Positions 4,859 through 54,000 of a DNA stretch of 64,000 nucleotides are shown here, piece after piece (position 1 is the first letter of the stretch; each line of letters begins with the position of its first letter). The stretch is from Spirochaetia bacterium. Its GTDB lineage: Bacteria; Spirochaetota; Spirochaetia; SZUA-6; Bin103. Position numbers and translations under genes: made by a program. The notes beneath the pieces are model-generated. The model ran no database searches and was not told the origin of the DNA. It saw only the letters and a program-made list of their open reading frames with translations. The DNA lies in the NCBI GenBank assembly GCA_965203055.1, contig OZ241863.1, positions 2,016,001 to 2,080,000 on the forward strand, written 5' to 3'.

Positions 4859-5500
4859 TCAGACATTGAACGGGGATTCCCAGATGGGGGTGAGTTGCAG
4901 GACGAAGCCGGGCAGCACCGGGTCACCGGCGACTGCCGACGGATGGTCGAGGTGCTCCACGGCGCCGTCTGCGTGGTAGACGAGAAGCTGCCTGCGGTCA
5001 GGCAGAATCAGCCAGCCCAGCCGGGCGCCGTTGTTGCGGTACTCCTCCATCTTGCGTTGGAGGGCCGGCACGGAATCGGACGGCGAGGCGATCTCGACCA
5101 CGAAGTCGGGACACAGCGGCAGGAACTTCCTGCCCCACTCCGCCACGATCGGCGCGAGGCGGGAATGCGCGGCCCAGGCCGCATCCGGCGACCGTACGGC
5201 GCCGTTGGGAAGCTCGAAGCCGGCGGATGAATCGAACGCCGCACCGGAGCGATCCTGGTCCGCCCAGCGCAGCAGCTCGGCAATCAGGCGGGCGTTGCGG
5301 GCGCTCGTCTCGCCGCCGGTGGGGGCCATTATCTCAATGTCTCCTGCGTCATTACGCTCGATCGCTACATCCCGGTTCAATTGGCAGAGTTGATAGAACT
5401 GATCGCGCGTGAGGTCGATCGCCGGGCGCAAGCGCAGCACCAACCGCGCCCCGGCCGGCCGCGCAACGTCGAGCTGCTGACTGGCCATTGCCACCGCCAT
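4859..5500 (-). CDS. Uma2 (DUF820) family PD-(D/E)xK endonuclease
   Basis: MAPTGG...DSSAGFELPNGAVRSPDAAW...PLCPDFVVEIASPSD...KMEEYRNNGARLGWLI are the characteristic family motifs. Confidence 0.92.
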   Translation of the reverse strand: MAVAMASQQLDVARPAGARLVLRLRPAIDLTRDQFYQLCQLNRDVAIERNDAGDIEIMAPTGGETSARNARLIAELLRWADQDRSGAAFDSSAGFELPNGAVRSPDAAWAAHSRLAPIVAEWGRKFLPLCPDFVVEIASPSDSVPALQRKMEEYRNNGARLGWLILPDRRQLLVYHADGAVEHLDHPSAVAGDPVLPGFVLQLTPIWESPFNV

Positions 5501-5622
5501 ACGCTACCTCCGGCGCCGCGCGCGGTCAAACGCGCCGAACCGACGCGCGAGTTTGACGTTGCCGCGGGCGGCGGCCACATTGACGACGGCATGAGTATCG
5601 TTGGCCGGCGAGATCGTTGGCG

Positions 5623-7206
5623 ATGACCGCGGACCGCTTCTTCTGCACCGAAGGCCCGATCAAGCCGGAGCGCCATTACCACGTCCCGCCGCTGGGACGC
5701 ATCGACCTCGACGGGGTTCTGCGCCTGATCGGCCAGTGGCGCTACTTCGTCCTGCATGCGCCGCGCCAGACCGGCAAGACCACCGCGCTGCTGGCGTTGC
5801 GCGACGCGTTGAACGACGGCGGCGAATGTCACTGCGTCTACGTGAACGTGGAGATCGGGCAGGCGGCCCGCGACGACGTGACCGCGGCGATGCGGGCGAT
5901 TCTGGACCGGCTGTCGGTGGAGGCCGAGCGCACGCTGGGAGACGGCTCGCTGGCCGGCATCTGGCCGGCGGCCCTGGCAACGGCGGGCGGCCTGGGCGCG
6001 CTGCTGAAGGCGCTCACCCTCTGGGCGGAGACCGCTCCCAAGCCTCTGGTGCTGCTGATCGACGAGGTCGACTCGCTGGTGGGAGACACGCTGATCGCGG
6101 TGCTCCGGCAACTCCGCAACGGCTACCCCGACCGGCCGCGGCGGTATCCCCAGAGTGTGATTCTGTGCGGCGTGCGCGACGTGCGCGACTATCGGATTCA
6201 ATCGACCCGGGAGCAGGCGGTCGTGACCGGCGGCAGCGCCTTCAACGTCAAGGCGGCGTCGCTGCGGCTAGGCGACTTCTCGTACGACGAAGTCCGGCTG
6301 CTGCTGGCGCAACATACCGCGGCGACCGGGCAGCCGTGGGCGGAGGAAGCGGAGCGCCGCATCTGGTCGCTTACCAACGGGCAGCCCTGGCTGGTCAACG
6401 CGCTCGCGCAGGAGGCGGTCGAGCGCCTGCCCGACTGCGCCCGCGGGCGGCCGGTGCCGGTGGCGGCGGTCGAGGAGGCGCGCGAACGGATCATCCTGCG
6501 CCGCGACACGCACCTGGACCAGCTCGCCGACAAGCTCGCCGAACCGCGCGTGCGCGGCGTCATCGAGTTGCTCCTCAGCGGCGGCCAATCCGCCGCCGAC
6601 CTGCCGCGCGACGACCTGGAATACGTCCGCGACCTGGGGCTCATCCGGATCGAAGGGGGCGTAGCGATCGCCAATCCGCTCTACCAGGAGGTGATCCCGC
6701 GCGAGCTCACCTACACCACCGAAGCGACGCTGGCCGCCGACGCGGCGTGGTACGTCGAGCGCGGCGGACGCCTGCAGGCGGACAGGCTGCTGGCGGCGTT
6801 CCAGGAGTTCTTTCGCGAGCACTCCGAGCACTGGGTCGAGCGGTTCCAGTACCGGGAGGCCGGGCCGCAGTTGCTGCTGCAGGCGTTTCTGCACCGCATC
6901 GTCAACAGCGGCGGCCGGATCGAACGCGAGTACGGCCTGGGCCGCATGCGGACCGATCTGCTGATCGTCTGGCCGGCCGGCGCCGCCGTGCAGAAGATCG
7001 TGATCGAGTGCAAGCTGCTGCACGGCAGCCTGGAACGGACGCTGGCGAGCGGGCTGACGCAGACCCGCGCCTATCTCGACCGCTGCGCCGCCGGCGAGGC
7101 CCACCTGGTCATCTTCGACCGCACCGCCGGCAAGCCCTGGTCCGCCAAGCTGTTCCGGCGCCGCGAAACCGCCGGCGGCCCGCCCGTCACCGTATGGGGA
7201 ATGTAG
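5623..7206 (+). CDS. AAA-like ATPase with C-terminal PD-(D/E)xK-like domain (paralog 1)
   Basis: Walker A HAPRQTGKT, Walker B LLIDEVD, GQPWLVN motif, C-terminal EREYGLGRMRTDLL...VIECK. Start at ATG 5623 (or TTG 5617). Confidence 0.85.
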   Translation: MTADRFFCTEGPIKPERHYHVPPLGRIDLDGVLRLIGQWRYFVLHAPRQTGKTTALLALRDALNDGGECHCVYVNVEIGQAARDDVTAAMRAILDRLSVEAERTLGDGSLAGIWPAALATAGGLGALLKALTLWAETAPKPLVLLIDEVDSLVGDTLIAVLRQLRNGYPDRPRRYPQSVILCGVRDVRDYRIQSTREQAVVTGGSAFNVKAASLRLGDFSYDEVRLLLAQHTAATGQPWAEEAERRIWSLTNGQPWLVNALAQEAVERLPDCARGRPVPVAAVEEARERIILRRDTHLDQLADKLAEPRVRGVIELLLSGGQSAADLPRDDLEYVRDLGLIRIEGGVAIANPLYQEVIPRELTYTTEATLAADAAWYVERGGRLQADRLLAAFQEFFREHSEHWVERFQYREAGPQLLLQAFLHRIVNSGGRIEREYGLGRMRTDLLIVWPAGAAVQKIVIECKLLHGSLERTLASGLTQTRAYLDRCAAGEAHLVIFDRTAGKPWSAKLFRRRETAGGPPVTVWGM

Positions 7207-7295
7207 CGCCCGCGCACCGGAGACCGGATAATGGCGCGTATCATCTCGGCGCGGCCGGCCACCAGGCACGAGCGGCGCCAGTTTGAATCAGGCAG

Positions 7296-8114
7296 ATGAA
7301 ACGAGAGTACGACTTTTCCAAGGGCGAGCGCGGCAAGTTCTACCATGAGGGCGCCACGCTGAACCTGCCGAGTTCCACCCGACAGCCTCCCTGGGCCCAC
7401 GACGAGAGACCGATCGTCCGCTTCATCACGGACGAAACCGGGAAGACCCTCCGGGCCTATCGCGAGCAACCGAGTCTGGTGACCGAGCACGCCAACCTCG
7501 AGCACGATACGGCTCATGGCGCCTACGCCCATCGGCAGATATTCGAGCTGGTCCAGAACGGAGCGGATGCGCTGACTCACTCGGACGGCGCGAGCATCCT
7601 GGTGCGCCTGACCGGGGAGTACCTCTACTGCGCCGACGACGGAAAGCCGATCGACGAAGCCGGCGTTCGAGCGCTCATGTTCTCCCACGTGTCGCGCAAG
7701 CGGGACACGAGCGAGATCGGACGGTTCGGACTTGGCTTCAAGTCGGTGCTGGGCGTCACGGACGCGCCCGAGTTCTACAGTCGTTCCGGTTCCTTCCGGT
7801 TCGACCGACACGATGCGGCGCGGCGCATAGCGGAAGTCGCGCCCGCGGAGCGCTATCCGGTGCTCCGATTACCCGTTGCCGTTTACGCTCACAAGGCATC
7901 GCAGGACGACGAAGACCTGCGCGAGATGATGACGTGGGCCACGAACATCATCCGCCTGCCACTCAAACCAGGCGCCCGGGAAGACTTGTCCGAGCAACTC
8001 ATGGCGTTTCCACCGGAGTTCCTGCTGTTCGTCGATCACGTCCGCCATCTGACCCTCGAAGACGGGGAGCGTTCCCGTGATTTGTCTCATGACTCGGTAG
8101 CCGCGTGCCGCTGA
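7296..8114 (+). CDS. Sacsin-like GHKL/HATPase N-terminal domain with an antitoxin-like N-terminal peptide; probably truncated
   Basis: GHKL motifs ELVQNGAD, ADDG and IGRFGLGFKSV. First 25 aa MKREYDFSKGERGKFY resemble BrnA/CopG-type antitoxin N-termini. Ends at 272 aa, overlapping the helicase start. Confidence 0.7.
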   Translation: MKREYDFSKGERGKFYHEGATLNLPSSTRQPPWAHDERPIVRFITDETGKTLRAYREQPSLVTEHANLEHDTAHGAYAHRQIFELVQNGADALTHSDGASILVRLTGEYLYCADDGKPIDEAGVRALMFSHVSRKRDTSEIGRFGLGFKSVLGVTDAPEFYSRSGSFRFDRHDAARRIAEVAPAERYPVLRLPVAVYAHKASQDDEDLREMMTWATNIIRLPLKPGAREDLSEQLMAFPPEFLLFVDHVRHLTLEDGERSRDLSHDSVAACR

Positions 8115-11100
8115 ATCCGATCGCCTATACCGAGAACGTCGTGCGCAGCTTCCTGCGCTACCAGCTTACGGCGTACCCGTTCGCCGATCCGGGGCTGCAC
8201 CGGCAGATGCGGGAGCTGCTGTCGCTCGACCGGACGCGCCGCTCGCCGCTGCTCAAGGGGCCGTACGTCAGCCTGTCCCGTCCGTTCCGCGACGGCTGCG
8301 CGGTCGAGTCGCTGGTCGCCGAAGGGGTGCTCCATCCGCACCTGAGCGAGCGGATTCCGGCCGCGATCACCCATCTCCGCAGTCACCAGGAACAGGCGAT
8401 ACGCGCCATCGCCGCGGACCGGACCACGCTGATCTCCACCGGCACCGGTTCCGGCAAGACCGAGTGCTTCCTCTATCCCATCGTCAGCCAGTGTCTGAAG
8501 CTGCGCGATCAGGGGGCGCCGCCCGGCATCAGCGCCGTCATCGTCTATCCGATGAACGCGCTGGCCGAAGACCAGCTCATGCGCCTGCGCGGCCTGCTGG
8601 CCGGCACCGGCATTCCGTTCGGCATCTACGTCGGCAAGACGCCGGAAGGCGAAGCCGACGTGGCCGGCGTCCGGCTGCGGCCCGGCGCCTCGCGGGCCGA
8701 CTACGAGGCGCGGCTGCGGCGGGCGCAGCGCGAGGGCAGCGGCGAGACCGTGTATCCGGCCGAGGAAGTCTGTTCGCGGCAGATGATGCGCGCGCCGGGC
8801 CGGCAGCCGCGGGTGCTGCTCACCAACGTGAAGCAGCTCGAGTTGCTGCTCACGCGCCAGCAGGACATCCAGCTCTTCGCCGCCGCTCGCCTGGACTTCC
8901 TGGTGTTCGACGAAGCGCATACCTTCACCGGCGCCCTGGGCGCGGAGGCCGCCTGCCTGATCCGGCGGCTGCGCGCGTTCTGCGCGGCCGAGCCGGATCA
9001 CACCACCTGCGTCGCCACTTCGGCGACCATCGTCGACGACCGGGAACCGGAGGCCGCGCGCTCGTTCGCGGCGCGCTTCTTCGGCGTTCCCGCCGCCGCG
9101 GTGCGGACGGTCGGCGAGGACTACGAGGCGGAAGTATGGGCAGCGCCTCGGGTTACGCCTCCAGCGCCGCGGCAGGACGCCGCGGCCGTCCTGGACCGTT
9201 GCGTGCAAGCGGTCGACGAGGCTGACGATCGACCGGCCGCCGTGCGCGCCGCATACGCCGAACTGGCCGGTGAGGACCTGCCGCCGGGAGATTGGCCGGA
9301 CGCGCTCCACGCCGCTCTGTCGCGCAACGAAATCGTGTTCCGGTTGAACGAGGAACTCGGCGTGCCCAGAGCGCTCGCCGAGCTGCCCCCCGCCCTTGCG
9401 AGACACCTCGGGCGGCCGGTCGCCGAGGCCGAGGTTCTCGCCTGGTTGACGTTGGGCGCGGCGGCGCGCGCGAACGGCCGCCCGCTGCTGCGGCCCATCG
9501 TGCACGGCTTCGTGCGCGGCATCGGCGGCGCCGTGGCGACCTTCCCGGACGACTGCGCCGGGCCGCGCTTGTGGCTGGCCGCCGAAGACCAGCTCGCCGG
9601 CCGCGAGGGCCGCGAGCCCGGCGCCGGCCACGCGCACTTTGCCGTAACGACCTGCACGACCTGCGGGCAGCACTACTACCTCGCGTTCCTGGAAGACTTC
9701 AGCTACACCGGGGCCAAGCCCGGCGGCGGGAGAGTCGGCGCGGCCGGCTCCTGGTGGCCGGCGCTGGAGGAGGCGCAGGGCGGCAAGCGGGTCGTGCTGA
9801 TCGACCGCCTGATCGGCGCAACGGACGAGGATGCGGAAGAGCCGGCCCGCCACCCGCGGACGGCGCCGCTCCACTTCTGCCGCCGCTGCGGCGCCGCGCA
9901 CCCGGAGCCGGCGCCGCGCTGCCGGGCGTGCGGCGCCGCCGGCGGCCCGGTGACGCTGCAGGCCGTGCGCCAGCACGCCAAGAACCCCGGCCACCTGACG
10001 AGCTGTCTCTCATGCGGCGCCAGCGGCCGCCGCATGAGCGGCCGCTACCGCGAGCCGGCCCGGTCGGTGCGCGCGATCAACGTGGCCGACGTGCACGTCC
10101 TGACGCAGGACATGGTGCACCACGCCCAGCGGCAACGCCTGTTGGTGTTCTGCGACAACCGGCAGGACGCGGCGTTTCAGGCCGGATGGATGAAGGACCA
10201 TGCGCGGCGCTTCCGGCTGCGGGCGCTGATGGCCGCCGGCATCAAGGCCAGTCCGCGTTCGGTGGGCGATCTGGCCGGCTACCTGGACGATCGGCTGGAA
10301 GCCGACGAGACCTTGTCGCGGGCGCTGGTGCCGGAGGTGTGGCAGGTCGCGCGCCGCGAAAGCGGCGGCGGCCGGCATCAGCAGGAACGCCGCAAATTCC
10401 TGCGGTTTCAGGTGTTGCGCGAGGTGGCGCTGTCCTCCCGGCAGGCGCTCGGCCTGGAACCGTGGGGCCGCGTGAAGGTGGAGTACGTCGGGCTCGACGC
10501 TTCCCTGCCGTGGCTCCAGGAGCACGCTCACTCCCTCGGCATAGCGCCCGACGAGCTGCGCGAAGGCGTGGCCAGCGTCCTCGACTACCTGCGGCGCCGG
10601 CGCGCGCTGCACGACCCGGAGTACGAGATCTTCACGAAGTACTGGATGGAGGGCGACCGGGAGATTCAGCAGGGATACCTGCCCGGATTCCTGGGTCCCG
10701 CCGCCACCAAGCTGCGCCGGGAGGGAGCGGACAAGCCGGAGCTGGTCATGCAATGGCTGAGCGACCGCGGCGCTACCACGATCCGGCAGATCGCCGCGAC
10801 CTGGGGGGTTGCCGCAGGCGCGGTCGAGCCGGTGCTGGAGAGCCTGTTCGACCTGCTGGTCGAGCGGGAGCTGCTGGTGTCGGTGCGGCTCAAGGGCGCC
10901 CGCGGGCGTCCGTTGCCCAACGTGCAGGGCGTCTATCAGGTCAACGCCGACCGGTTGCGTCTGACCCCGAACCGGGGCGTGCGGCGCTGCCGGCGCTGCC
11001 GCCGCACCACCACGCGCAACCTGCCCCATCGGCGCTGCGCGGCCTGGCGCTGCGGCGGCGCGCTGGAGTGGGTGCGGGAAGACGATGACGACTACGACCT

Positions 11101-14074
11101 GCAGTTGCTCGACGGCGCCTACCTGATGCTGCGCCCGGAGGAGCATACGGCCATGGTCCCGCCCGACGAGCGCGAGCGGTTGGAGAACCTGTTCAAGGGG
11201 AGGTCGGAAGCCGTGAATTGCCTGGTCTGTACGCCGACCCTGGAGCTGGGGATCGACATCGGCCAGCTCGACTCCGTGCTGATGCGCAACGTGCCGCCGC
11301 TGCCGGCCAACTACTGGCAGCGCGCCGGCCGCGCTGGCCGCCGCCACCGCATGGCGGTCGACCTCACCTACTGCCGTCCGACGTCGCACGACCGTTCCTA
11401 CTTCCGGGAACCGCGCAAGCTGCTGGACGGCAGGATCGACCCGCCGGCGTTCAACCTGCGCAACGACGTGATGGTCGCCAAGCACGTGCGCGCAACCGTG
11501 ATCGCCGGCCTGCATCGCTGCTGCCGCGACGGTTCCCGGCCGCAGGAGGAACGGGACGCGATGCGCGCAATCCTCCAGGCCTGTCTGCCGCGGCACGTGG
11601 CGCCGTATCTGTTCGCCGGCGCCGAGGTGCGTACGGCGCCGGTCGACTTCTCCCCCTTGCGCGCGCTGGTTGCCGATCACGCCGCGGCGCTGACCGGCGA
11701 GGTGCGGCGCGTGTTCGCGCAGGGTTGGCCGGAGGCGGACGCCGAGGTGACCGCCCCGGACGAACTGCGCGCCCGGGTCGACGCGTTCGCCGATGACCTG
11801 GAGCAGGTGGTCGCCCGCCTGCGGCGCCGCTTGCGCTGGGCGCTGGATCAGATCCGCCGGCTGGACGTACGCCGCGAACGGCAGGGGACGCTCGACGCGG
11901 CCGACGAGGCGTTGTTCCGGCGTTGCGATAATCTGGTGAAGCGCCTGAAGGGCACCCGCCGGCGGCGCAGCCAGGCGGAGGGGCACGACGACTTCAACAC
12001 CTTCAACGTGCTGGCAGCCGAGGGGTTTCTGCCGGGCTACGGCCTGGAAGCGGGATCGGTGGTCGGCTGGGCGGAGATTCCGTTCTGGCGCACCGGCGCC
12101 ATGGACTTCTCCCTGCCCCGGCCGTCGGCGGCGGCGCTGCGGGAGTACGTTCCCGGCAACCTCATCTACGCCAACGGTCACCGCTTCGTGGCGCGGCGCT
12201 TCCATCGCGATATCGATGAAGAGCGGGCCGAGCTGCCCTGCTACGAGGTGGCGGTCGACCGCAAGGCGGTCCGGGAAGCCGCTCCGGGCGGCGGGTCGGC
12301 GCTCGGCGGGCGCGTGCTGCAGACGATGGCGGTCTGCGACGTCGACCTCATCCACACCGCGCACATCTCCGATGAGGAGGAGTTGCGCTTTCAGTTGGGC
12401 GTCGCCATCCACGGCCTGGAGACCGGCCAGCATAACGGCGGGACCGCGTACCGCTGGGGCCCGCAGCCGGCGCAGCTCCGGCGCGGGGTGCGCATGCGGC
12501 TGGTAAACGTGGGCGCGTCGGCCGCCATCGCCGGCGGCGAGCGGATCGGCTATCCGGTGTGCACGACATGCGGCCAGAGCATCTCTCCCCTTTCGTCCGA
12601 CCAGCAACGGCAACGGTTCGATCAGGACCACCGGCAGCGCTGCGGTCGCGCGCCGCGGTCGATCGGCTTCTACGCCGACGTGGTTGCCGACGCGCTGTCG
12701 CTGCCCGCCTGTGACAGCGCCGTAACCGCGTACAGCGTGCTGGAGGCGTTGCGGATCGGCGCCGCCAGCGTGCTGGACATGCACGGCGAAGACCTGCAGG
12801 TACTGGTCATCGGCCACGTCGACCGCGAGCAGGTCGACGGGCTGCTGTGGGACCCGATGCCGGGCGGTTCCGGACTGCTGGAACGCCTCTGCGAACGATT
12901 CTCCGAAGTCGTTGCGGCCGCCCGCGCGGTCGCCGCCGATTGCCCGGCGGCGTGCAAGTCGTCGTGCATCGACTGCCTGCAGACGTTTCGCAACGCCTAC
13001 TATCACCGCGACCTGAATCGCGCGGCGGCCTGCGACCGATTCGACGAGTGGGGCGCGCGGCTTGCGTTCGAGCATGCCATTCCGCCCCGGCAGCCGGTCG
13101 AGACACCGGGCGGGGACGCGCTGCCGGCCAACGAGGCGGAGCTCAGGCTGCGTCATCTGTTGCGCGCCGCGGGATTCGGGGAGGGCATTCGCGGCGAACA
13201 GCTTCGCTTGAGCCGCGCCTTGGGTACGACCACGCCGGACGTGATCTACCGCGCCGACGACGATGAGCCGGACGAAGGCGTCTGCATCTATCTGGACGGG
13301 CTGAGCGCGCATCTCCACGGCAATCCCGAGACTGCGGCGCGCGACCGCGAAATCCGCGATTGGCTGCGCAACGGCGGGTTCGACGTGATCGAGATCGCCG
13401 CCCACGATCTGCACGACCGGGAGGCGATGACGCGCCATTTTCGCCGGCTGGCGCAGTACCTGGGCATGCGCGCCGCCCGGCGCCGGCTGCGCGAAGACCC
13501 GTCGTGGTTCCACGGGCCGGAGCAGACGCCGGCGGCCGGCCGGCCGCCGTTGCGCCTGGTGTCGCCGGCGCCGGCCAGCCGCTACGTGACCTGCGTGCCG
13601 CTGGTCCCGCTGCAAGCCGCGGCCGGCGCGTTCGGCGGCGCCGATACGATCGCGGACGAATCGGAAGGCAAGTGGGAGTGGGTCGAGATCGACACCGGCC
13701 GTTCGCTGCGCCGCGGCATGTTCGTGGCGCGCGTCGACGGCAAGTCGATGGAGCCGCGCATACCGGACGGCTCCTATTGCCTGTTCGCCGGTCCGGTGAC
13801 CGGCACCCGCCAGGGACGCATCGTCCTCGCGCGACTGCTGAACGCCGTCGACCCGGACACCGGCCAGCGGTTCACCGTGAAGCGCTATCGGAGCGACAAG
13901 GCCGTCGACGAAGACGGCTGGCGCCACCTTTCCATCGTCCTGGAGCCGTTCAATCCCGATTACGAGCCGCTCGAACTGGCCGCCGAGGACGAGAGCCCGG
14001 TCGCCGTGATCGCCGAACTGATCGAGGTGATCGGCACCGAGGCGCCGTCCGACCGGCCCGCCGGCGAGCCCTAG
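8105..14074 (+). CDS. Large DEAH-box helicase with Zn ribbons, DUF1998, Vsr/DUF559-like nuclease and C-terminal S24 peptidase
   Basis: 1989 aa. TGTGSGKT, YPMNAL, DEAH, SAT, TPTLELGIDIG, QRAGRAGR; DUF1998-type DPMPGGSG...CPAACKSSCIDC; PDVIY...YLDG...H...RD; AAG...GKSM...TVKR. Confidence 0.9.
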   Translation: MPLNPIAYTENVVRSFLRYQLTAYPFADPGLHRQMRELLSLDRTRRSPLLKGPYVSLSRPFRDGCAVESLVAEGVLHPHLSERIPAAITHLRSHQEQAIRAIAADRTTLISTGTGSGKTECFLYPIVSQCLKLRDQGAPPGISAVIVYPMNALAEDQLMRLRGLLAGTGIPFGIYVGKTPEGEADVAGVRLRPGASRADYEARLRRAQREGSGETVYPAEEVCSRQMMRAPGRQPRVLLTNVKQLELLLTRQQDIQLFAAARLDFLVFDEAHTFTGALGAEAACLIRRLRAFCAAEPDHTTCVATSATIVDDREPEAARSFAARFFGVPAAAVRTVGEDYEAEVWAAPRVTPPAPRQDAAAVLDRCVQAVDEADDRPAAVRAAYAELAGEDLPPGDWPDALHAALSRNEIVFRLNEELGVPRALAELPPALARHLGRPVAEAEVLAWLTLGAAARANGRPLLRPIVHGFVRGIGGAVATFPDDCAGPRLWLAAEDQLAGREGREPGAGHAHFAVTTCTTCGQHYYLAFLEDFSYTGAKPGGGRVGAAGSWWPALEEAQGGKRVVLIDRLIGATDEDAEEPARHPRTAPLHFCRRCGAAHPEPAPRCRACGAAGGPVTLQAVRQHAKNPGHLTSCLSCGASGRRMSGRYREPARSVRAINVADVHVLTQDMVHHAQRQRLLVFCDNRQDAAFQAGWMKDHARRFRLRALMAAGIKASPRSVGDLAGYLDDRLEADETLSRALVPEVWQVARRESGGGRHQQERRKFLRFQVLREVALSSRQALGLEPWGRVKVEYVGLDASLPWLQEHAHSLGIAPDELREGVASVLDYLRRRRALHDPEYEIFTKYWMEGDREIQQGYLPGFLGPAATKLRREGADKPELVMQWLSDRGATTIRQIAATWGVAAGAVEPVLESLFDLLVERELLVSVRLKGARGRPLPNVQGVYQVNADRLRLTPNRGVRRCRRCRRTTTRNLPHRRCAAWRCGGALEWVREDDDDYDLQLLDGAYLMLRPEEHTAMVPPDERERLENLFKGRSEAVNCLVCTPTLELGIDIGQLDSVLMRNVPPLPANYWQRAGRAGRRHRMAVDLTYCRPTSHDRSYFREPRKLLDGRIDPPAFNLRNDVMVAKHVRATVIAGLHRCCRDGSRPQEERDAMRAILQACLPRHVAPYLFAGAEVRTAPVDFSPLRALVADHAAALTGEVRRVFAQGWPEADAEVTAPDELRARVDAFADDLEQVVARLRRRLRWALDQIRRLDVRRERQGTLDAADEALFRRCDNLVKRLKGTRRRRSQAEGHDDFNTFNVLAAEGFLPGYGLEAGSVVGWAEIPFWRTGAMDFSLPRPSAAALREYVPGNLIYANGHRFVARRFHRDIDEERAELPCYEVAVDRKAVREAAPGGGSALGGRVLQTMAVCDVDLIHTAHISDEEELRFQLGVAIHGLETGQHNGGTAYRWGPQPAQLRRGVRMRLVNVGASAAIAGGERIGYPVCTTCGQSISPLSSDQQRQRFDQDHRQRCGRAPRSIGFYADVVADALSLPACDSAVTAYSVLEALRIGAASVLDMHGEDLQVLVIGHVDREQVDGLLWDPMPGGSGLLERLCERFSEVVAAARAVAADCPAACKSSCIDCLQTFRNAYYHRDLNRAAACDRFDEWGARLAFEHAIPPRQPVETPGGDALPANEAELRLRHLLRAAGFGEGIRGEQLRLSRALGTTTPDVIYRADDDEPDEGVCIYLDGLSAHLHGNPETAARDREIRDWLRNGGFDVIEIAAHDLHDREAMTRHFRRLAQYLGMRAARRRLREDPSWFHGPEQTPAAGRPPLRLVSPAPASRYVTCVPLVPLQAAAGAFGGADTIADESEGKWEWVEIDTGRSLRRGMFVARVDGKSMEPRIPDGSYCLFAGPVTGTRQGRIVLARLLNAVDPDTGQRFTVKRYRSDKAVDEDGWRHLSIVLEPFNPDYEPLELAAEDESPVAVIAELIEVIGTEAPSDRPAGEP

Positions 14075-14093: not shown

Positions 14094-17000
14094 TCAATCG
14101 CCGGCGGCGATGATGACCCGGTCGCCGGCGGTGCGGGCGAAGGTCTCCGGGGCGTACATCTCCTCCGCGGTGGCCGGCGGGACCACGAACGCGCCGGGAA
14201 TGGTAGCGCGCGTCGTGTACTGGAACTGGTAGACGCCGGCGCTCAGCAAGGACGCGAACGCCTCCGCGCGCTCGTCGCGCAGATTGTGGTGGTCGTACCA
14301 GGTCGTCCGCCACCACCGCCACTCCGGGGCATCGGCCAGGCCGATGCTCTCCAGGCCGGCCGGCAGCGGGTCGACCAGCGCCACGTGCACCCGCCGCGAC
14401 GGCACCGCCAGCGTCAACTCCACCCGCACGCGGCTGCCGGCGCGGATGCGCCACGCGCCGTCCGCGTCCCGGCGCACGTCCGCCGGATCGTCCACCGCGG
14501 CGTAGCGCCGCTCCACGCCGAAGCCGTGGGCGGCCGCTTCGTGCCGCAGGTCGGCGGGCGCGTAGCGCAGCCCCAGGCGGTAGTAGAGCCGCCCCGCGCC
14601 TTCCGCGCCGACGATCAGCGGCGCCGCCCCGCCCTCCTCCGCGCCGGCGCGGACCACCGCCAGCGGCAGGTCCAGACTGACCTGCTCCACCGAGCGGCCG
14701 CGGAACTCGCGCCCGCCGGCGTAGCGCCCGCCCAGCCATACCCCGGCCGTGAAGTCGGGCGGCCGTGACTCGAAGGTTCGGAAGTAGCGCTCCAGCGCCA
14801 GCAGCACCCACACGTTCTCCTGCGTGTTGGCCCAGCGCCCCTTGACGCGGTGGCCCAGCAGCCCGCGCACCAGCTTGGCGATCAGCCCGTCGTCGGGCCG
14901 GCCGCCGTCCGGCTGCGCGGCGATCAGCGCCTCCAGCAGGACCGCGTCCGAGCGGCGGCTGGAATGGAGCAGCAGGTAGGCGCCCTCCTCGTAGCCGGTG
15001 GCGATGGTGGCGGCGCCGGCGGTCTCCGTGACCCGGTCGTTCAGGAAGCCGGCGATCTCCCGCACCGCCGCCGCCGAGTCGGGATCGCCGGCCAGCGCCG
15101 ACAGCAGCCAGCCGATGCTCTCCGCGGAGAGGTTCTCAAGCCCGGCGCCGGCCACTAGCCGGCGCGCCGCGGCCGGGTCGCCGTCGCCGAGCAGCGCCCG
15201 CACGTACAGCGCGTAGGAGCGCAGCGCGAGGCGTTCCGAGCGGTCGTAGTCGCCGGGGATGTGGTCCTCGACGTTCCGCAGATACGCGCGCGAACGGTCG
15301 AGCGCCTCCTCCCGCACCGCGTAGCCCCGCTGCCGGGCGCGCGCCAGGGCGTGCGCGGCGTGGATGCTGTGGTACGGCCACGACCGCTCGTGCCGGTGCC
15401 AGATCGGGAAGCCGCCGTCCGCCCTCTGCAGATCCTGCAGGTTCTCCAGGTAGCGAGCCATCGCCCGCCTGATGGCGGCCGGTTCCGGCAGCCCGGTGGC
15501 GGTGAAGGCGGCCAGCACGTCGCGCAACGCGGCCACGGCGATGATGGCGGAGGCGATCTGCTCCGAGCATCCGTACGGGTAGCCCACCAGATAGAGGAAG
15601 GCATCACTGAGGCTCTGCAACAGGGTGGAAGAGAGCGTCACCTGCAGGCCGCCGTAGCCGGGGAGCACGGCCTCCGGCACGCTGATCCGGTGCCGGGCGG
15701 CAGCGCTGCGGGCGGCGGCGCTGCGGGTGGCGGCGCTGCCGGCGGCCGGTACGTCGATGTGGCCGTAGGCGGCGAATGCCTCGGCGACCGCCGGGGTGAA
15801 CACCGGCAGGTCGACGGCCGCGGCGTCGGCGAGGGCCGGCTCCGCAACCGCCGCGGCGGCGAAGCGGAAGCGGGCGGTGCCGGCGCGGGCCGCCGCCGCC
15901 GGGAAGCGCACCTCCACCCGATCGCCGGCCGGCACGGTCACCGCGTAGCCGGCGGCCTTACCGGCGCCATCCTCCGTACCGGCCACGGCGGGCGGCGAGC
16001 CGGCCGGCAAGTCGGGCGCCAGGTTGGCGTTGCGGGCGCGGGCGGCGACGTGGACCGGCAACGCCGCCTCGGTGCGGTTGTGGACCACGACCGGCAACTC
16101 GAAACGGTCGCCGAAGTTCAGGAAGCGGGGCGCCGACGGCCGCACCATCAGCGGCAGGCGGGCGGTCAGCGCGGCCTCGCCGGTGCCGAACTGCCGGGCG
16201 CCCGCCGCGGCCACGGCGATGATCCGGTAGCGGGTCAGGTTGTCCGGCAGCGTGACCGGTATCTGGGCGCCGCCTGCGGCGCCGGTGCGCACCTCCGGCT
16301 CAAACAGGGCGAGCGGGGCAAAGTCCTGCCGTACCGCGAGCGGCGGCGGCGCGCCGCGTTCCACCGCGGCGTCGGGCGCCCGCGAGAAACGGACGTCGGC
16401 TTCTTCAAGGGCGAACCCCTCCGGCCGCCCCCGGGCCGACCGGCCGGAATCCTCCCCCGCAGGCAGCGCCAGCGAAGCGCGGGTGTCATGGTCGCTGACG
16501 CCGGGCTCGCGCGGCGGGTAGAAGTCGGCGATCGGGTCCGGCGGCCGATAGCCGGCCAGCGACAGCACCGCCTCGTCGACCACCAGCACCGCAACCTCGG
16601 CGTCCGCCACCGGCGCGCCGGCGGCGTCCCGCACCGTCACGTCGATGGTGGTCCGGCCGCCGGGTTCGAGCTGCGCCGCGCGCGGCGCCACCTCTACCTG
16701 CAGGGTGCGGCTCACCGGCGGCACCGGCAGGTCGATGCTGCCGGCGGCGTAGGCGGGGCGGCCGCCGGCCGCGCCGAGCAGGTCGACCTGCACGTGCAGG
16801 TTGGGAATGAACCGCTCCGTGACCGGCACTTCCAGGGTGTGGGTCGGCCCGGCCAGCGTGAAGCGTTCGGCCGCGGCCAGTCCGTCCCGGCGCAGGGTGA
16901 GCATCCCCTCGGCCGGGAAGAAGGGCGCCTGCACCAGGATGCGCGCGCGGTCGCCGGGCAGGTAGCGGTCGCGGTCCGGTATCAGCCGCACCTCCTGCCG

Positions 17001-20000
17001 CGTCACGCCGCCGTCGTCGGGCCGGTAGCCGCCGCCGGTCGCCCAGCGCGTCAGCTCGGTCCGATTGCGCCGGCCGGCGGCGTCAATGACCTCGGCGGTG
17101 ACGCGGTAGGCGCCGCCGCGCGGCGTGGCGAAGGCGCAGGAAGCGAACGCGCCGGCGGGCGTGCGCGGGTCGGCGGCGACCTCGGCGTCAGCGGCGGTGG
17201 TGCGCAGCGCGCATTCCTGCACGTCCTGCTCGACCTCCTGCCACTCCCCGCCGCGCTGCTGCCAGTCGATCCGCGCCGCCCGCAGGGCGACCTCGTGCCC
17301 GGCGACCGCGGCGCCGTCGACGTCGGTCACGACCGCTTCCACCGCCAGCGGCTCGCCCTGCTCAACGAAGTAGCTGCCGGTACGCAGGCCCACGTAGCGG
17401 TCGGCCGGATGCACCAGCAGGTCGGCGCTGCCGCTCCAGGCCTGGCGGTTCACGTCGGCTACCGTGGCGGTCGCGTCGATGAGGACCGGAGTAGCCGCCG
17501 CGCCCGGCACGAAGTCGACGCGCAAGTGATGCGCGCCGCCGGCGCCGGTGGTGGAGCGCAACACGGCGCTTCCCAGCTCGTCGTCGTCCTGGTCCGTGCC
17601 GCCGGGGAAGCGCTGCCACCACGGCACCCAGGTGCCGAAGGCGAAGTCCGGCCAGTCCGGCGGCGCGTAGGAGGCGCGTTCGGCGTTCACCTGCCACTCC
17701 ACCCCGGCGCCCGGCAGCGGCCCGCCGGCGAAGTAGCGCGCCGTCGCCGTCAGCACCGCGTGGCCGCCGGCCACGTGCAAGCCGCCATCCGCCCCGCCGC
17801 TGACGGTCGCTTTCACCTCGAACTCGGGCCGGCGGAACTCCTGGACCTCGATGAAGTGAAGGTCGCGGTCGTTCCTCGCTTCGAGGGTGCCGCCGCCGGG
17901 CGACAGATAGATCCAGGCCGTTCCCAGGTCGATCCGTTCCGGCAGGTCGAGTTGGAAGTGAAATCCGCCCAGGCGGCTCAATGGCGCTTGCCCGGCGGCG
18001 ATGTCGTTGCGTCTCGCGTCGGTGACCCGATAGGCGACGTGGTCGGCCGCCCGCGGGCCGAACAGCTCCAGGTCGCCGGTCGGACCGCGCCGGGCGCGCC
18101 GCAGCCAGCCCTTGATGGCGGCGGTCTCACCCGGACGGTAGAGCCGGCGGTCGTCGAACACGGACATCCTCGTATCGGCACCCGGCTCGCGCCGATGCCA
18201 GACCGGCAGGAACACCGAATCGCCGCCGGCGCGGGCGATGATCACGTGGTCCTGGCCGCGGGAACGAAGCGGCAGCCGCGCCGTGCCGGCGTCGTCGGTT
18301 ACGGCGTGGCTGCCGCCGCGACTCGGCTCCACCCGGACCCCGCCGCGCGGCGCGCCGTCAGCCAGCCCGCTGACCCACACCAGCAGCTTACCGGCGTCGG
18401 CGAACGCGGTCAGCCCCAGACCGGTCACCTGCACCCAGCGTGTCTCGATATATTCGTCCTCCCAGAGCTGGTCGTCCTCCCAGAGGTCGTCTTCCTGGAG
18501 CCGGTCATGGTCCGCCGCGGCGGGTTGCAGGTGCAGGATCAGGTGACCGTAGGCGCCGTTCAGCGCCTCGGCCAAGTCGATGCCGGTATCGGTCACGGCG
18601 TCCTCCGCGCCGCGGATGCGGATCGTCCGGTCCAGCACCGGTTCGCCGAAACGGTCCGGCGGTGCGCCGGTGCGCCGTCCCTCCCAACGCAGATATTCCC
18701 CGTACCGCTCCGGCGCGACGCGAACGGCGCGCACGCGCACGCGGTCGACGTTGACCGTGCGCAGGGGAAAGACCGGTTCGCCGGACAGGAGGGTCGCCGG
18801 ATCGGCGCGCGGGATGGTCAGGTACGGTTCTGCCGGCTCTACGTCGAATCGGACCGACACGTCGTGCCGGAGCGGCTGGCCGAACGCGTCAGTCAGCCCG
18901 GCGTCGACGGTGACCGTATAAGTGGTGCGGGCGCGGGACGCGCCGTAGATCCGCATGTCATAGCCGGAGGCGGATAACTGCACGTCGGCGCCGTCCAGCT
19001 CGGGCCGGATGGCGATCAGGTCGGGATCGAACCGCTCGTCATCGAGCGAATTGTTGAAGGACAGCGTCCAGGGCATCCCGGCCCGGCAAGCGTCCCCCCG
19101 CCGCCCGCAATGGTGACCGCTAAGCTGCAGCGGCGCCGACGTATGGAAGCCAAAGCTGCGCCGGCGTTCGGTGGCGCGCGGCCCTTCGGCGGACGGCGTT
19201 CCGGCGGCGAAGGTCACGGTCACCGCGGCATCGGCCGGCAATGTCTCGACCGGGACGAACGCCAGCCAGCGGCCGGCGGGCGCCTCGTCGACCAGCCGCC
19301 GCACGGCTTCATCCGCCTCGATTTCGGCCGCCGCCGCCAGGCGCACCGGCCGGCGCTGCCCCTCGGCGGTCACGCGGACGTGCTCCAGCACCGCCGCCGG
19401 GTCGACGCGCTGGTCGAAGGCGGCGAACAGGACCGGCTGCGGGCCGGTCACGCTGTCGTCCGGATGCACGGTCCGCACGGTCGGCGCGGGCGTGCGGAAG
19501 GTCCACTCCACCGCCTCCGGCAGGAGGCCGCCGGCCGCGGAGGTGGTTCCGGCGGCGATCCGGACGCGGAACTCGGTGGCCATCGGCAGCCGGCCGGCGG
19601 CCGCCTCGAACAGGAGCGTGTCGGTCCCCACCCACCGCCAGCGGCCCGGCACCGCCGGCGACAGCGTGACCGGGTTGTCCTCCGGCGCCGGCTCGCGGGG
19701 ACTCCCAGCGCCACCAGCGGCTGGTTGAAGGTCACCCCCACGTGCGGCGCCAGGGCGACGTCGCCCCGCGGATAGGCGCGCAGCACCGCCAGCGGGCCGC
19801 CCGCGCCGGGCGCCGGCGCTGCCGGTGGTGGGTCGTCGGCCGGCGGCGGGAACGGCAGCGCGACCGCCCGACCGGGCGGGGGCGGCGGCCGGCTCCGCTC
19901 CGGCAGCCGGTACTCGACCGCGTCCCCGCCTCCCTCCGCGGCCGGCGCCAGCCGCGCCAGCCGCGCCAGCCGCGCCAGCAGCGGGCGCAGTTGCGCGTCC

Positions 20001-50781: not shown

Positions 50782-51093
50782 ATGGGCGAAAAGACGACGA
50801 CGGTCAGCGCTCTGCGCCAGCAACTGATCGAAAAGGCGACCGCGGACCGCGAGTTTCGCAACCAATTGATGGCGGACCCCAGGACCGCGATCGAGGCGGA
50901 AACCGGCCTGACCGTGCCCTCCGAGTTCAACGTCGAGGTGCACCAGGACACGGCGACTACCGGTCACTTGATCCTGCCGCCCTCCGCCGAGCTCGGGGAA
51001 GCCGACCTGGCGCAGGCCGCCGGCGGCATCGACTGGTCCGGAGTGGGGCAATGGGAATATGGCAGGACCTACGACGAGGTGATGAACTCGTAG
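50782..51093 (+). CDS. NHLP (nitrile hydratase-like leader peptide) RiPP precursor
   Basis: Strong RBS GGAGGAGAGG. LIEKATADREFRNQLMADPRTAIE...VEVHQDT...HLILPP...ELGEADLAQAAGG leader with double-Gly site, then core IDWSGVGQWEYGRTYDEVMNS. Confidence 0.9.
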   Translation: MGEKTTTVSALRQQLIEKATADREFRNQLMADPRTAIEAETGLTVPSEFNVEVHQDTATTGHLILPPSAELGEADLAQAAGGIDWSGVGQWEYGRTYDEVMNS

Positions 51094-54000
51094 CCGGCAC
51101 GGCCGCGGCGCGGGCTTCGGCGGCGGCGCGGCCGGCGTTGAGCGCGAGCAGGCGGGCGAGCGCTTCGTCGCGGACCGCGTCGGGCCAGCGGTAGCGGCAG
51201 GGTTTCTTCTTGCGGCCCCAGGCGGCCTCGTCGATCGCATAGTCGAGGAGGAAGTCGCAGGCGGTGGGAAGGTCGCTCCAGCCGTAGGCGTCGAGCACGG
51301 CGCGGTCCATGGCGGCATGCAGTTCGCGGAGCTTGGCGATGCGCGGGTCGGTCTCGTAGAGGTCGTGGAAGCGGTTGTAGGTCCGCGTCATGCCTTCGCC
51401 GTTGTCCACCATGAGCGCCGCGCGGTAGTCGTAGTACGCTTTGCCGGCGGCTTCGAGGGCGGGATGAGTGTCCCGGCCTTCCGGGAACGGGAAGGTCTCG
51501 AAGCAGTCGGAGGGAGTATACGTGAGTCGGTCTTCCAGTGAAGACCCGAGAAATCGGGACCATATCTCATGAATTCGAGATTGGAGCACACAGAATAATT
51601 GGCAGCTCTCGCTGGGAAAGATGACGAGTCGATCACTGTACACCGCCGCTGACCGAAGGAACGCGAACCCCGTGTGCTCACTGACTCGAGAGATTGCCAG
51701 CACTCGGTCCAGGCCGGCGATGGCGCCGCCATAGAGTTCCTTGGCGGTCGATCCGTAGCGCCACCAGAACTTGGCGCGTTTCCTGCCGATGGCGTTCCTG
51801 CTGAGCTTGGCGCGTTCCGGCTTGACCCGCTCCTCGACAATCGCCATCAAGTCCGGCCAGCGCCGACGGCACTCAGCCTCGCTTCGCTCGCCGAAGTTGA
51901 TGACGTAACGATGGTGCGCGTGAGTCGGGCTGGTGTTCACCTCCTCGCCGCCGACGTAGGGGAAGATCACCTCGCGGTTGCGCGGGTCCTGATCGATCAG
52001 CCGCCGCATCTCGGCGAGCGGTGATGCCACTCCCTTCCGGTCGGTGTCGTCGAAGGTGAATCCCATGCCGAGCACGATGCTGCCCTGAAAGCTCTTGCCG
52101 GCGTTGGCCGCCAGCCGCACCGGATCGGCATGCCCGCCCCGATGAAACAGAAACGCCGTGACGCGCTCCACCGGGGCGCCGTCGAGCGTCCTCCTGCCCG
52201 ACGACTTGCCCTTCTCTATGTGTACCACGCTGACGACGACCGCGGCATCGCCAGGCCATTTGACCCGCTTGGTGGCGCGGTAGATATGACCGCCATGCTC
52301 GCAGATCCAGCGCAGGCCGCTGGAACGGGTGTCACCCTGGGCGATGGTGTTGGTGGCGATCAGGCCGAACGCGCCGCCGCCGCGCAGCAGGTCGAACGCG
52401 CGCCGGTAGAAGTGCGCCACCAGGTCGGCGTTGCCGTGGCTCTGCGCGTGCAGTTCCTTGAGCCAGCTCGGATAGCCGGCGACGTTGCCGGCGGCAACGT
52501 TGTTCTTACCCGCGAACGGCGGGTTGCCGACGAAGCCGTCGAAGCCCGGGTTCGCGCGCTCGAACACCTCGGGAAACTCGATTTCCCAGTGGAACGGCGC
52601 GAACGGCTTTTCTTGAGTGTTACGGCGCGTCTTCAACTCCGCGGCGTGGCGCCACCCCTGCCGCGTGAGAATCGCTTCCTGGTACGCCTCCAGACGCGCC
52701 GCGCGCTCCTTCGGCTTCGAGCCCTCGAAGAACGCCGCCAGCGTCAGATCGCCGAACCGCCGCACCTCCGCCAGCGCGTCCTGCGCGCGGCGCCACAGCG
52801 TCTGCAACTGCCGGTCGGTCACGGTGTCGTCCGCTTCCCGAATCCGGCGCCGCAACTCAGATGCCTCCGCCAACTTCTCGCGCACCCCGAAGCCGGCCAG
52901 GATCGGCTGTCCGCCCTGCCAGTGCAGCGCTTCGATCTGCCGCCGCGTCAGCCCCACGAGCGAATCGCCGCGGCGGAAGGCGTGGTCCACGAAGGTGAAC
53001 GGATGGTCGCGCGCCAGCGTGCTCAGCCACAGCGACACCTTGGCCAAGTCTACCGCCATCGGGTTGCGGTCGATGCCGTACAGACACTTCTGGGCCACCA
53101 GCCGGCGCGCGAAGGTCACCTCGTCCTCATCCGCCGGGATGTCAGGCAGCGCTCCGTGCGCGCCCCACGCCTCGATCAGCGCGTCGGCAAGCTGGCGGCA
53201 GGTCTCCACCAGAAACGCCCCCGATCCCATCGCCGGATCGCAGATCTTGAGATCGAGGACCTGCTCCGGGCGCGGCGGGCCGCCGTCCTCGCCGCGCAGC
53301 CGCTCCAGCAGCGGCGCCAGCGTATGGCGCACGATCGGCTCGGTCAGCTCCCGCGGCGTGTAGTGCGAGCCGGAACGGCGCCGCTCCTCGTTGGGCTGCA
53401 GCACCAGCCCGCCGCGGGGCACCAGGTCCGGCGTCGCGGCGTGATCCAGCACCCGGTCCAGCACCGCGTGCAGGTCGTTCACCGTGTGCGCCGCGCGCAG
53501 CCCCTTCGCGACCGCGGCGCTGACTGGGCGGTCCGCCCGCTCCTGCAGCCAGCGTCCGCGGCGCGCGGGGGGCTGCGCCAGCAGCGCGTCCAGGTCGATG
53601 GTGGTGGGCGCCCCCAACTTCTTCGCCGGCTTGATCGCCAGCGAGCGCCCGGTCGCGGTCTCCAGGCGAAACCCCATGATCGTCTCGTACACCGAGCCGA
53701 TCTGCTCCACGTCCAGCGTCCGGTAGGAGAGTCGCTCCCCGTCCAGCACCAGCAGCTTTTCCAGCACCCGGTAGACCACCCCGTCCGACACCCGCGGCGG
53801 CTCCAGCCGCGCGTTCCGCTGCCGCGACCCGCTGCCGCGGCGGCCCTCCAGGAACCGGTAGCGGTCCGGGTCGAACAGCGCGCCGCGGCGCTCCGGCAGA
53901 CTCACCGCGCCGCCGGTGCGGTCGGCCGGCACCCCGTCGTGGAGCAGGCGAAACAGCACCACCAACTGCGCCCAGGCGCCGTAGCGCTGATCCATCGTGT

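Follow-up and report, generated by a model that had tools for sequence, protein, structure and literature searches.

The window analysed here is a stretch of 64,000 nucleotides from the genome of a Spirochaetia bacterium (assembly GCA_965203055.1, contig OZ241863.1, positions 2,016,001 to 2,080,000 of the forward strand). Close to its left end lies the gene that concerns us, which encodes a large helicase of the YprA family (DruE/ArmC-like) that continues into a Vsr-like nuclease and ends in a tail of the S24 family, the family of LexA, UmuD and the phage lambda repressor CI. Restriction and helicase-nuclease defences must avoid cutting the chromosome of their own cell. For type I restriction enzymes one known form of control is restriction alleviation by ClpXP, which acts in trans and, to our knowledge, is known in few systems only. 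Here we describe the helicase-nuclease and its LexA-type tail. The tail also occurs outside this helicase, as an optional module common to many classes of restriction enzymes, which goes beyond what an earlier sequence-only reading of the locus had proposed. We then weigh whether it may serve as a self-cleaving switch.

The helicase-nuclease and its C-terminal tail

The gene is a single uninterrupted open reading frame (ORF) that begins with GTG and runs for 1989 codons (coordinates of all features are collected in Table 1). Its GC content at the three codon positions (GC1/2/3 = 0.74/0.51/0.90) is coding-like and agrees with the pattern of the neighbouring alpha-2-macroglobulin gene (0.77/0.55/0.92). 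A Pfam search of the whole protein finds DEAD (74.5 bits), ResIII, Helicase_C and MZB, the newer name of DUF1998; the DEAD/DEAH core, Helicase_C and MZB each exceed the Pfam cut-off, as befits the YprA/MrfA family. In the translation, GTGSGKT, FDEAH and QRAGRAGR can all be read as intact helicase motifs, the last one following Helicase_C, and the DEAH-DUF1998 helicase that the sequence-only reading had placed here is thereby borne out. Its further suggestion of a DISARM- or Druantia-type defence helicase holds in part. The best matches of the body among the PADLOC models are DruE3 (2.7e-101) and DruE1 (4.5e-96), and the protein is thus DruE-like; however, the body is best placed with the ARMADA and Druantia branch of the YprA helicases, not with DISARM, and the partner genes are absent nearby. 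PADLOC 2.0.0 predates ARMADA and holds no models for it, so ArmC-like proteins would also fall on DruE. The alignments to the DruE models end at about residue 1650, and the last ~340 residues are unmatched.

Modelled with AlphaFold2, this C-terminal part of the protein (389 residues; mean predicted local distance difference test score, pLDDT, 80.2; 218 residues at 90 or above) shows two folded units joined by a linker. Over the first, the pLDDT is mostly above 85, and structural alignment of model residues 74-188 with VIA-align matches I-Bth0305I (3r3p; Z 10.9, root-mean-square deviation (rmsd) 2.5, 98 residues aligned), Vsr itself (1cw0; Z 8.8, rmsd 3.6, 103 aligned) and NGO0050 (3hrl; Z 8.8, rmsd 2.5, 90 aligned). 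Residues D1712, D1731 and H1738, the putative counterparts of the Vsr catalytic residues, are kept in 121 of 121 relatives, and E1763 is kept in 119 of the same 121. The Vsr/DUF559-like segment of the sequence-only reading is supported by this fold; in sequence searches, none of 36 tails matched a Vsr or DUF559 family of Pfam at E ≤ 0.05. One relative (P0224) gave 28.8 bits against REase_MTES_1575, under the cut-off of 38.2. The linker that follows is predicted with low confidence (model residues 207-213 have a pLDDT below 50, and the block of 10 residues from model residue 201 averages 62), and its residues are poorly conserved in both of our tail alignments, A1 and A2.

The second folded unit is the S24 tail. 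Peptidase_S24 matches residues 1854-1969 in the Pfam search of the whole protein (32.7 bits, E 6.8e-8, cut-off 23.3), and the last 389 residues searched alone raise the match to 36.2 bits (E 5.5e-9). All three motifs on which the tail had originally been recognised are present: VPLVPLQAAAG at 1831-1841, with the predicted scissile bond between Ala1840 and Gly1841, GKSM at 1879-1882, with Ser1881, and TVKR at 1924-1927, with Lys1926. When the single tail was searched with phmmer against the sequences of the PDB, only a chance match to a kinase was obtained (E 0.46). A profile of 31 tails (alignment A1) matched 15 chains of the PDB, all 15 of them LexA or UmuD, and its alignment to the LexA chain 8gms_A sets AAG on the VAAGEP region, at the chain start, and GkSM on SGMSM. 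The fold agrees. The top-ranked Foldseek matches of the model are all LexA, lambda CI or UmuD, with 35 matches at E ≤ 0.001 and the best to 1jhh_A (E 2.2e-6), and VIA-align superposes model residues 228-379 on LexA chains 3k2z_B (Z 12.1, rmsd 2.9, 122 aligned) and 1jhc_A (Z 11.7). Because the profile matches in the PDB are LexA or UmuD without exception and the top structural matches are likewise all LexA, CI or UmuD, the likeness of the tail to these proteins far exceeds chance. A homodimer prediction for two copies of residues 1822-1982, made without controls, scored 0.00 in both runs and speaks neither for nor against a dimer.

The cleavage site and the catalytic dyad are conserved among the relatives of the tail. 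In a close set of 121 tails, made up of the window's own and its 120 best full-length or near-full-length relatives (59-96% identity over the tail), Ser1881 is present in all 121, Lys1926 and Ala1840 each in 120, and Gly1841 in 117. In a diverse set of 31 tails that are 35-69% identical to that of the window, many of which come from short protein predictions with an unseen N-terminal part, neither the serine nor the lysine varies, and conservation of AAG is 90% or more. Ala-Ala in the form x-Ala-Ala precedes the glycine in 98 of the 119 representative matches that span the cleavage site. Judged from these alignments, all three catalytic elements are under purifying selection, and a pure dimerisation domain would need neither the cleavage site nor the dyad.

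An optional and portable module

Relatives of the helicase were fetched from metagenomes with its core region (residues 1101-1765), and eight of them have a complete C-terminus. Three of these (loci L011, L013 and L017) bear the S24 tail; the other five (L014, L016, L018, L019 and L020) are tail-less and end 39-48 residues past the nuclease. In a midpoint-rooted tree of ten helicase cores the tailed and tail-less forms interleave, with Shimodaira-Hasegawa-like support of 0.97-1.0, a pattern which indicates that the tail has been gained or lost repeatedly within this helicase clade.

The distribution of the tail reaches well beyond helicases. When the last 239 residues were compared by phmmer with 1.84 billion representative proteins, 1869 matches were obtained at E ≤ 1e-3, 1068 of them at E ≤ 1e-10. 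From 150 listed matches, the 62 that are at least 300 amino acids long were scanned with Pfam: PF00717 was found at E ≤ 1e-5 in 52, and a recognisable N-terminal domain in 37, every one of which is of a restriction or defence type. These comprise Type ISP enzymes (9), YprA/MZB helicases (7), HsdR (4), HNH nucleases (4), ResIII helicases (3), Schlafen-type proteins (3), Type IIG or methyltransferase proteins (2), PLD nucleases (2), and one each of LlaJI, McrBC and UvrD. The remainder, many of them gene fragments, show S24 only (22) or no domain at all (3). No helix-turn-helix (HTH) domain was found at E ≤ 1e-5 in any of the 62. Nearly always, no more than about 10 residues separate the end of the S24 domain from that of the protein, the exceptions being P0140, P0146 and P0168.

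A hidden Markov model (HMM) of the subfamily scores 143-230 bits on the tails, scores that are high partly by construction, as the tails were collected by their likeness to the query; of the genome's own LexA proteins one scores 17 bits and the other gives no match. In a FastTree phylogeny of S24 domains, read without support values, all tails fall into a single clade set off by a long branch, and inside this clade YprA helicase tails are intermingled with tails from other classes of enzyme. We conclude from these comparisons that the tail represents a distinct S24 subfamily whose place, with few exceptions, is the very C-terminal end of ATP-dependent restriction and defence enzymes.

Searches of other collections with the tail gave fewer matches. 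Genome contigs yielded 3 loci only, plasmids one weak match (37% identity), and phages none. Of 401 genomes sampled from the same phylum, 5 match the tail at E ≤ 1e-20, the source genome being one of them, and in the other four the match spans only the S24 part of the query (from its residue 205). In the phylum of locus L003, tail-type S24 domains occur in 13 of 401 genomes, where 12 of 15 matches lie inside open frames of 800-2092 amino acids.

The genome, the neighbourhood and related loci

The source genome (4.56 Mb, one contig) contains RecA and ClpX, as well as two canonical LexA paralogues with winged-helix heads that are located away from the helicase. It also holds a second tailed enzyme, a type I HsdR of 1248 amino acids whose tail is 55% identical to that of the helicase; this gene adjoins HsdS, a YhgA-like transposase gene and a Gabija GajA/GajB pair.

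Table 1. Features of the helicase gene, its neighbourhood and the genome; positions are those of the window unless a locus or genome label is given
Feature	Position	Strand	Basis or remark
Whole gene: YprA-family (DruE/ArmC-like) helicase-nuclease with S24 tail	8105..14074	+	1989 aa, Pfam, PADLOC
Superfamily 2 (SF2) helicase RecA1 lobe, ~residues 90-336, with GTGSGKT and FDEAH	8372..9112	+	Pfam DEAD 93-179, ResIII 90-276
Helicase_C (RecA2 lobe core), residues 1017-1080	11153..11344	+	Pfam PF00271, 46.5 bits
MZB / DUF1998 zinc-binding domain, residues 1547-1625	12743..12979	+	PF09369, 34.9 bits, cut-off 24.2
Vsr-like PD-(D/E)xK nuclease fold, residues 1674-1788	13124..13468	+	VIA-align to Vsr-type structures
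Linker from nuclease to S24, residues 1789-1821	13469..13567	+	low pLDDT, poor conservation
S24 (LexA/UmuD-type) module, residues 1822-1979	13568..14041	+	Pfam PF00717, subfamily HMM 215 bits, fold
Cleavage-site region VPLVPLQAAAGAFG, residues 1831-1844; predicted scissile bond Ala1840-Gly1841	13595..13636	+	conservation, LexA alignment
Predicted catalytic dyad, Ser1881 and Lys1926	13745-13747 (Ser); 13880-13882 (Lys)	+	motifs GKSM, TVKR
Sacsin-like GHKL ATPase-head protein, 272 aa; upstream neighbour	7296..8114	+	PADLOC, NCBIfam
AAA_22/AAA_35/AAA_16 ATPase, 529 aa	5617-7206	+	GC3 0.92, precomputed Pfam families of relatives
Uma2-family nuclease	4859-5500	-	upstream
AAA_16/STAND-like ATPase, 413 aa	3470-4711	-	upstream
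AAA_16 + TPR protein (AAA_16/STAND-type ATPase), 994 aa	489-3473	-	upstream
Alpha-2-macroglobulin gene	14094-19652	convergent to helicase	downstream
DrmMI-like / type IIG methyltransferase, 1353 aa	50957-55018	-	multi-copy family
LexA paralogues	L023:510-1409, L024:445-1056 (G000:C1 near 2457 kb, 113 kb)		cleavage sites VQAG, VAAG
Tailed type I HsdR (HSDR_N, SWI2_SNF2, T1R_D3-like)	G000:C1:886132-889878 = L010:8133-11879

No gene of a Druantia or ARMADA system accompanies the helicase in the part of the window that was scanned. A PADLOC search of eight flanking ORFs (the shadow frame 5601-7286, discussed below, among them) found neither DruH nor another Dru gene, and none of the neighbour ORFs scanned, from 489 to 26156, encodes a BrxHII-like helicase or a PglX-like methyltransferase. 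A genome-wide family search places the nearest Eco57I/DrmMI-type methyltransferase 37 kb downstream, at 50957-55018, and the only matches to the BrxHII model that it gives within the window lie inside the helicase itself. This methyltransferase has at least five further near-full-length copies in the genome (87-93% identity), plus fragments; matches to the Eco57I domain number 26 in the whole genome.

The loci of relatives differ in this respect. In L016 a DrmD-like fragment and a type IIG/DrmMI/PglX-like methyltransferase of 1847 amino acids precede the helicase, and the same kind of methyltransferase lies upstream of the helicase in L019 and L020. A methyltransferase fragment is found 4 kb upstream in L013, which is tailed, and a DrmD-like SNF2 helicase (E 5.9e-279) lies downstream in L003. 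The pairing of a BrxHII-like with a PglX-like gene that marks the ARMADA operon is seen in L016, L019 and L020, and in part also in L003 and L013. Since the loci of its relatives carry DrmD-like and PglX/DrmMI-like genes, we class the helicase with ARMADA-type enzymes, and since no BrxHII-like or PglX-like partner adjoins the present copy, that copy is an orphan ArmC-like gene that constitutes neither an ARMADA nor a Druantia system. A methyltransferase is nearby in all three tail-less loci with enough flank (L016, L019 and L020) and in one of three tailed ones (L013, but not L011 or the window).

A sister copy of the gene was found in another metagenome-assembled genome (MAG; L001:7056-11160). 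It is 97% identical in nucleotides and carries a frame-shifting internal deletion of 1856 nt (window ~10990-12838). Homology between the two begins at the start codon of the helicase and stops just before its stop codon, the flanks being completely different; window segment 3560-8104 is missing from the sister MAG, and the ORFs upstream in L001 are unrelated to the upstream genes of the window. The deletion and the differing flanks suggest that the helicase gene moves and decays like a defence gene.

Immediately upstream, the stop of the GHKL gene overlaps the start of the helicase by 10 nt. Its product matches the head of TmtA in PADLOC (1.6e-41), covering only the first ~235 positions of the Tiamat TmtA models, and P_loop_sacsin in NCBIfam. 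A truncated Tiamat TmtA was considered, an idea weakened by the 545 relatives of the protein (149-476 aa), among which stand-alone forms of ~270-290 and ~420-440 amino acids are common, many of the shorter ones at 97-100% coverage. The ATPase further upstream belongs to a very large family (at least 8000 candidates at E ≤ 0.001, many ~65% identical). The longest ORF over the same region, 5601-7286 on the forward strand, was discarded as a non-coding shadow frame: no family was found for it, and its GC3 is 0.49. We also rejected the GHKL gene and the ATPase as conserved partners of the helicase, both being absent upstream of it in L001, L002, L011 and L013. Farther upstream, the reverse-strand genes between 489 and 5500 form a run that resembles a defence island.

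Discussion

The same S24 module caps many kinds of restriction enzymes, and its cleavage site and dyad are conserved; for these reasons a proteolytic switch is suggested, and we infer that such a function is well motivated. In the explanation that we prefer as a whole, and to which we give about an even chance of being right, the S24 tail would be a self-cleaving regulatory switch, with RecA on single-stranded DNA (ssDNA) as its most likely signal and shut-off as its favoured outcome. As in LexA and lambda CI, a signal would bring the Ala1840-Gly1841 bond into the Ser/Lys site, and the likeliest such signal would be RecA bound to ssDNA arising from broken or resected DNA. Self-cutting would then part a helicase-nuclease body of 1840 residues from a tail of 149 residues.

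What would follow the cut is more speculative. Protein ends in Ala-Ala resemble ClpX signals and the ssrA tag, and the new ...Ala-Ala-Ala C-terminus of the body might, like the N-terminal fragment of LexA, expose a latent ClpX signal. The nuclease would thus be removed upon damage to the cell's own DNA, a built-in form of restriction alleviation that would be useful for an enzyme without an adjoining methyltransferase. We favour shut-off over activation, speculative as this part of the proposal is, because x-Ala-Ala precedes the predicted cut in most tails, because LexA cleavage is reported to expose latent ClpX signals (PMC10584840), because type I enzymes are alleviated through ClpXP (PMC11109961), and because no methyltransferase stands beside the present copy.

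Several points weigh against this explanation. Everything in it beyond the identity of the domain is inferred, the self-cleavage of the members of the subfamily being a prediction from their sequences, and the conservation counts in the 121 tails are partly inherited, as these relatives are at least 59% identical over the tail. Ala-Ala before the glycine occurs in ordinary LexA as well, for example in the second LexA of this genome (LexA2), and is therefore not a specific degron signature. A link between the tail and the lack of a methyltransferase is possible, on very few loci, too few to claim. The cleaved body, residues 1-1840, would closely resemble the natural tail-less relatives, which are presumably active in full ARMADA-like operons, and activation therefore fits as well as shut-off. 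Finally, self-cleavage of the S24 protein IrvR is reported to be independent of RecA (PMC7101444).

The resemblance to the tail-less enzymes of ARMADA-like operons (1811-1818 residues, against a predicted 1840) also invites the opposite outcome, in which the tail keeps the enzyme inactive, either autoinhibited or as a tail-to-tail dimer, until RecA filaments, formed on intermediates of phage replication or recombination, trigger the cut and release an active, tail-less enzyme at the site of infection. Recent preprints are in keeping with this, in that they describe DruE-type enzymes on replication intermediates that contain ssDNA, and the conserved catalytic elements suit it just as they suit the explanation we prefer. 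We nevertheless think activation unlikely: an orphan nuclease without a methyltransferase that is unleashed while the host's own DNA is damaged looks self-destructive, and Ala-Ala before the cut fits a degron better, though weakly. A switch that cleaves itself on some cue other than RecA, such as stalling of its own translocation, pH or a phage protein, or that matures slowly as a timer, would find a precedent in IrvR (PMC7101444); with the subfamily so far from canonical LexA (17 bits or no match, and a long branch), the surfaces that contact RecA need not persist. Against it, tailed enzymes all either produce or encounter DNA that is broken or single-stranded, which is the natural substrate of RecA, the genome has RecA, and no neighbouring gene points to another trigger, all of which makes a RecA-independent cut quite unlikely.

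It is also conceivable that the tail does not cleave at all. The C-terminal domains of LexA, CI and UmuD are dimerisation domains, and in many translocating restriction enzymes cutting follows the encounter of two molecules, so the tail could serve only to pair enzymes, or to dock them on RecA filaments and thereby recruit them to RecA-coated ssDNA. Docking or pairing alone, however, needs neither the Ala-Gly bond nor the serine and lysine, which are invariant or nearly so across the tails of unrelated enzymes, and we consider a non-cleaving tail improbable. Most doubtful of all is that the gene is a functionless leftover, a decaying orphan of an ARMADA-like system that has lost its partners. 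The absence of BrxHII-like and PglX-like genes nearby would suit such an end, as would the sister MAG copy with its deletion and wholly different flanks, but 1989 codons are uninterrupted here, the helicase, nuclease and S24 motifs are intact, the GC pattern is coding-like, and another tailed relative (L011) likewise stands without adjacent partners.

The self-cleaving switch may not be confined to this helicase. More tentatively, and with somewhat less confidence than we place in the proposal for the single protein, we suggest that the dedicated S24 subfamily could be a portable self-cleaving sensor of activated RecA and DNA damage, fitted to many unrelated ATP-dependent restriction and defence nucleases, and with it a general control layer of prokaryotic immunity that has gone undescribed. 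Its carriers would be ArmC/DruE-like helicases, HsdR, Type ISP, Type IIG and Type III Res enzymes, McrBC, PLD, Schlafen-like and HNH proteins. The SOS signal would then act directly on proteins, switching nucleases off or destroying them, or switching them on. As an off-switch it would restrain nucleases that threaten a damaged or under-methylated chromosome, and would amount to an autonomous restriction alleviation acting in cis.

If this is true, a fused self-cleaving tail would link the RecA/SOS damage signal directly to immune nucleases at the level of the protein, and such damage-linked control could pass from one enzyme class to another. It would account for the tolerance of orphan nucleases that lack a methyltransferase, add a regulatory principle to ARMADA/Druantia-type systems, and offer a compact, damage-responsive tag for degradation or activation in engineering.

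Comparison with known systems

Among the closest known enzymes is ArmC of ARMADA. According to Bell et al. (2025), ArmC is a YprA-like helicase whose C-terminal Vsr nuclease is active; they also report that some Druantia-III-like helicases bear Vsr too, and describe type III DruE with PLD-like domains (PMC12458937). The window protein is like the type I ArmC of that paper in being a large YprA-family helicase with MZB/DUF1998 and a C-terminal Vsr-type nuclease (PMC12458937), and its relatives, 55-58% identical in the core, adjoin DrmD/BrxHII-like SNF2 helicases and PglX/DrmMI-like methyltransferases as ARMADA genes do. It differs from ARMADA in that no BrxHII-like or PglX-like gene adjoins the window copy, and from ArmC in its S24 tail of ~170 residues; the main text and the four text-form supplement files of Bell et al. 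make no mention of S24, LexA or peptidase (PMC12458937). With Druantia it shares the best PADLOC matches, to DruE over the helicase body, but the window copy has no Dru partner among the neighbours scanned, and its nuclease is Vsr-like where that of type III DruE is reported to be PLD-like.

The literature search found no publication on S24 or LexA-like tails of restriction or defence enzymes, and in a preprint on Druantia III and Zorya II LexA appears only as an SOS tool. The tail resembles LexA, UmuD and CI in its fold, its Ala-Gly site and its Ser-Lys dyad, and shares with LexA and CI the order of functional body, linker, cleavage site and catalytic core. Unlike those repressors, however, it has as its body a helicase-nuclease of ~1800 residues with no N-terminal HTH or winged-helix domain, and it falls into a subfamily separate from LexA, as the scores of the subfamily HMM (143-230 bits for the tails, 17 bits or none for the genome's LexA proteins) indicate.

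In function, the nearest parallel is the restriction alleviation of EcoKI, which is reported to proceed via proteolysis of HsdR by ClpXP (PMC11109961). The function that we propose for the tail would likewise be the proteolytic shut-off of a translocating enzyme for the protection of the host, and the tail is also found on HsdR; in EcoKI, by contrast, the protease is reported to act in trans on stalled complexes, whereas in the present protein the fused S24 domain would make the first cut. Set beside these systems, the gene at 8105-14074 encodes an ARMADA/Druantia-type helicase-nuclease with a previously undescribed LexA-type tail.

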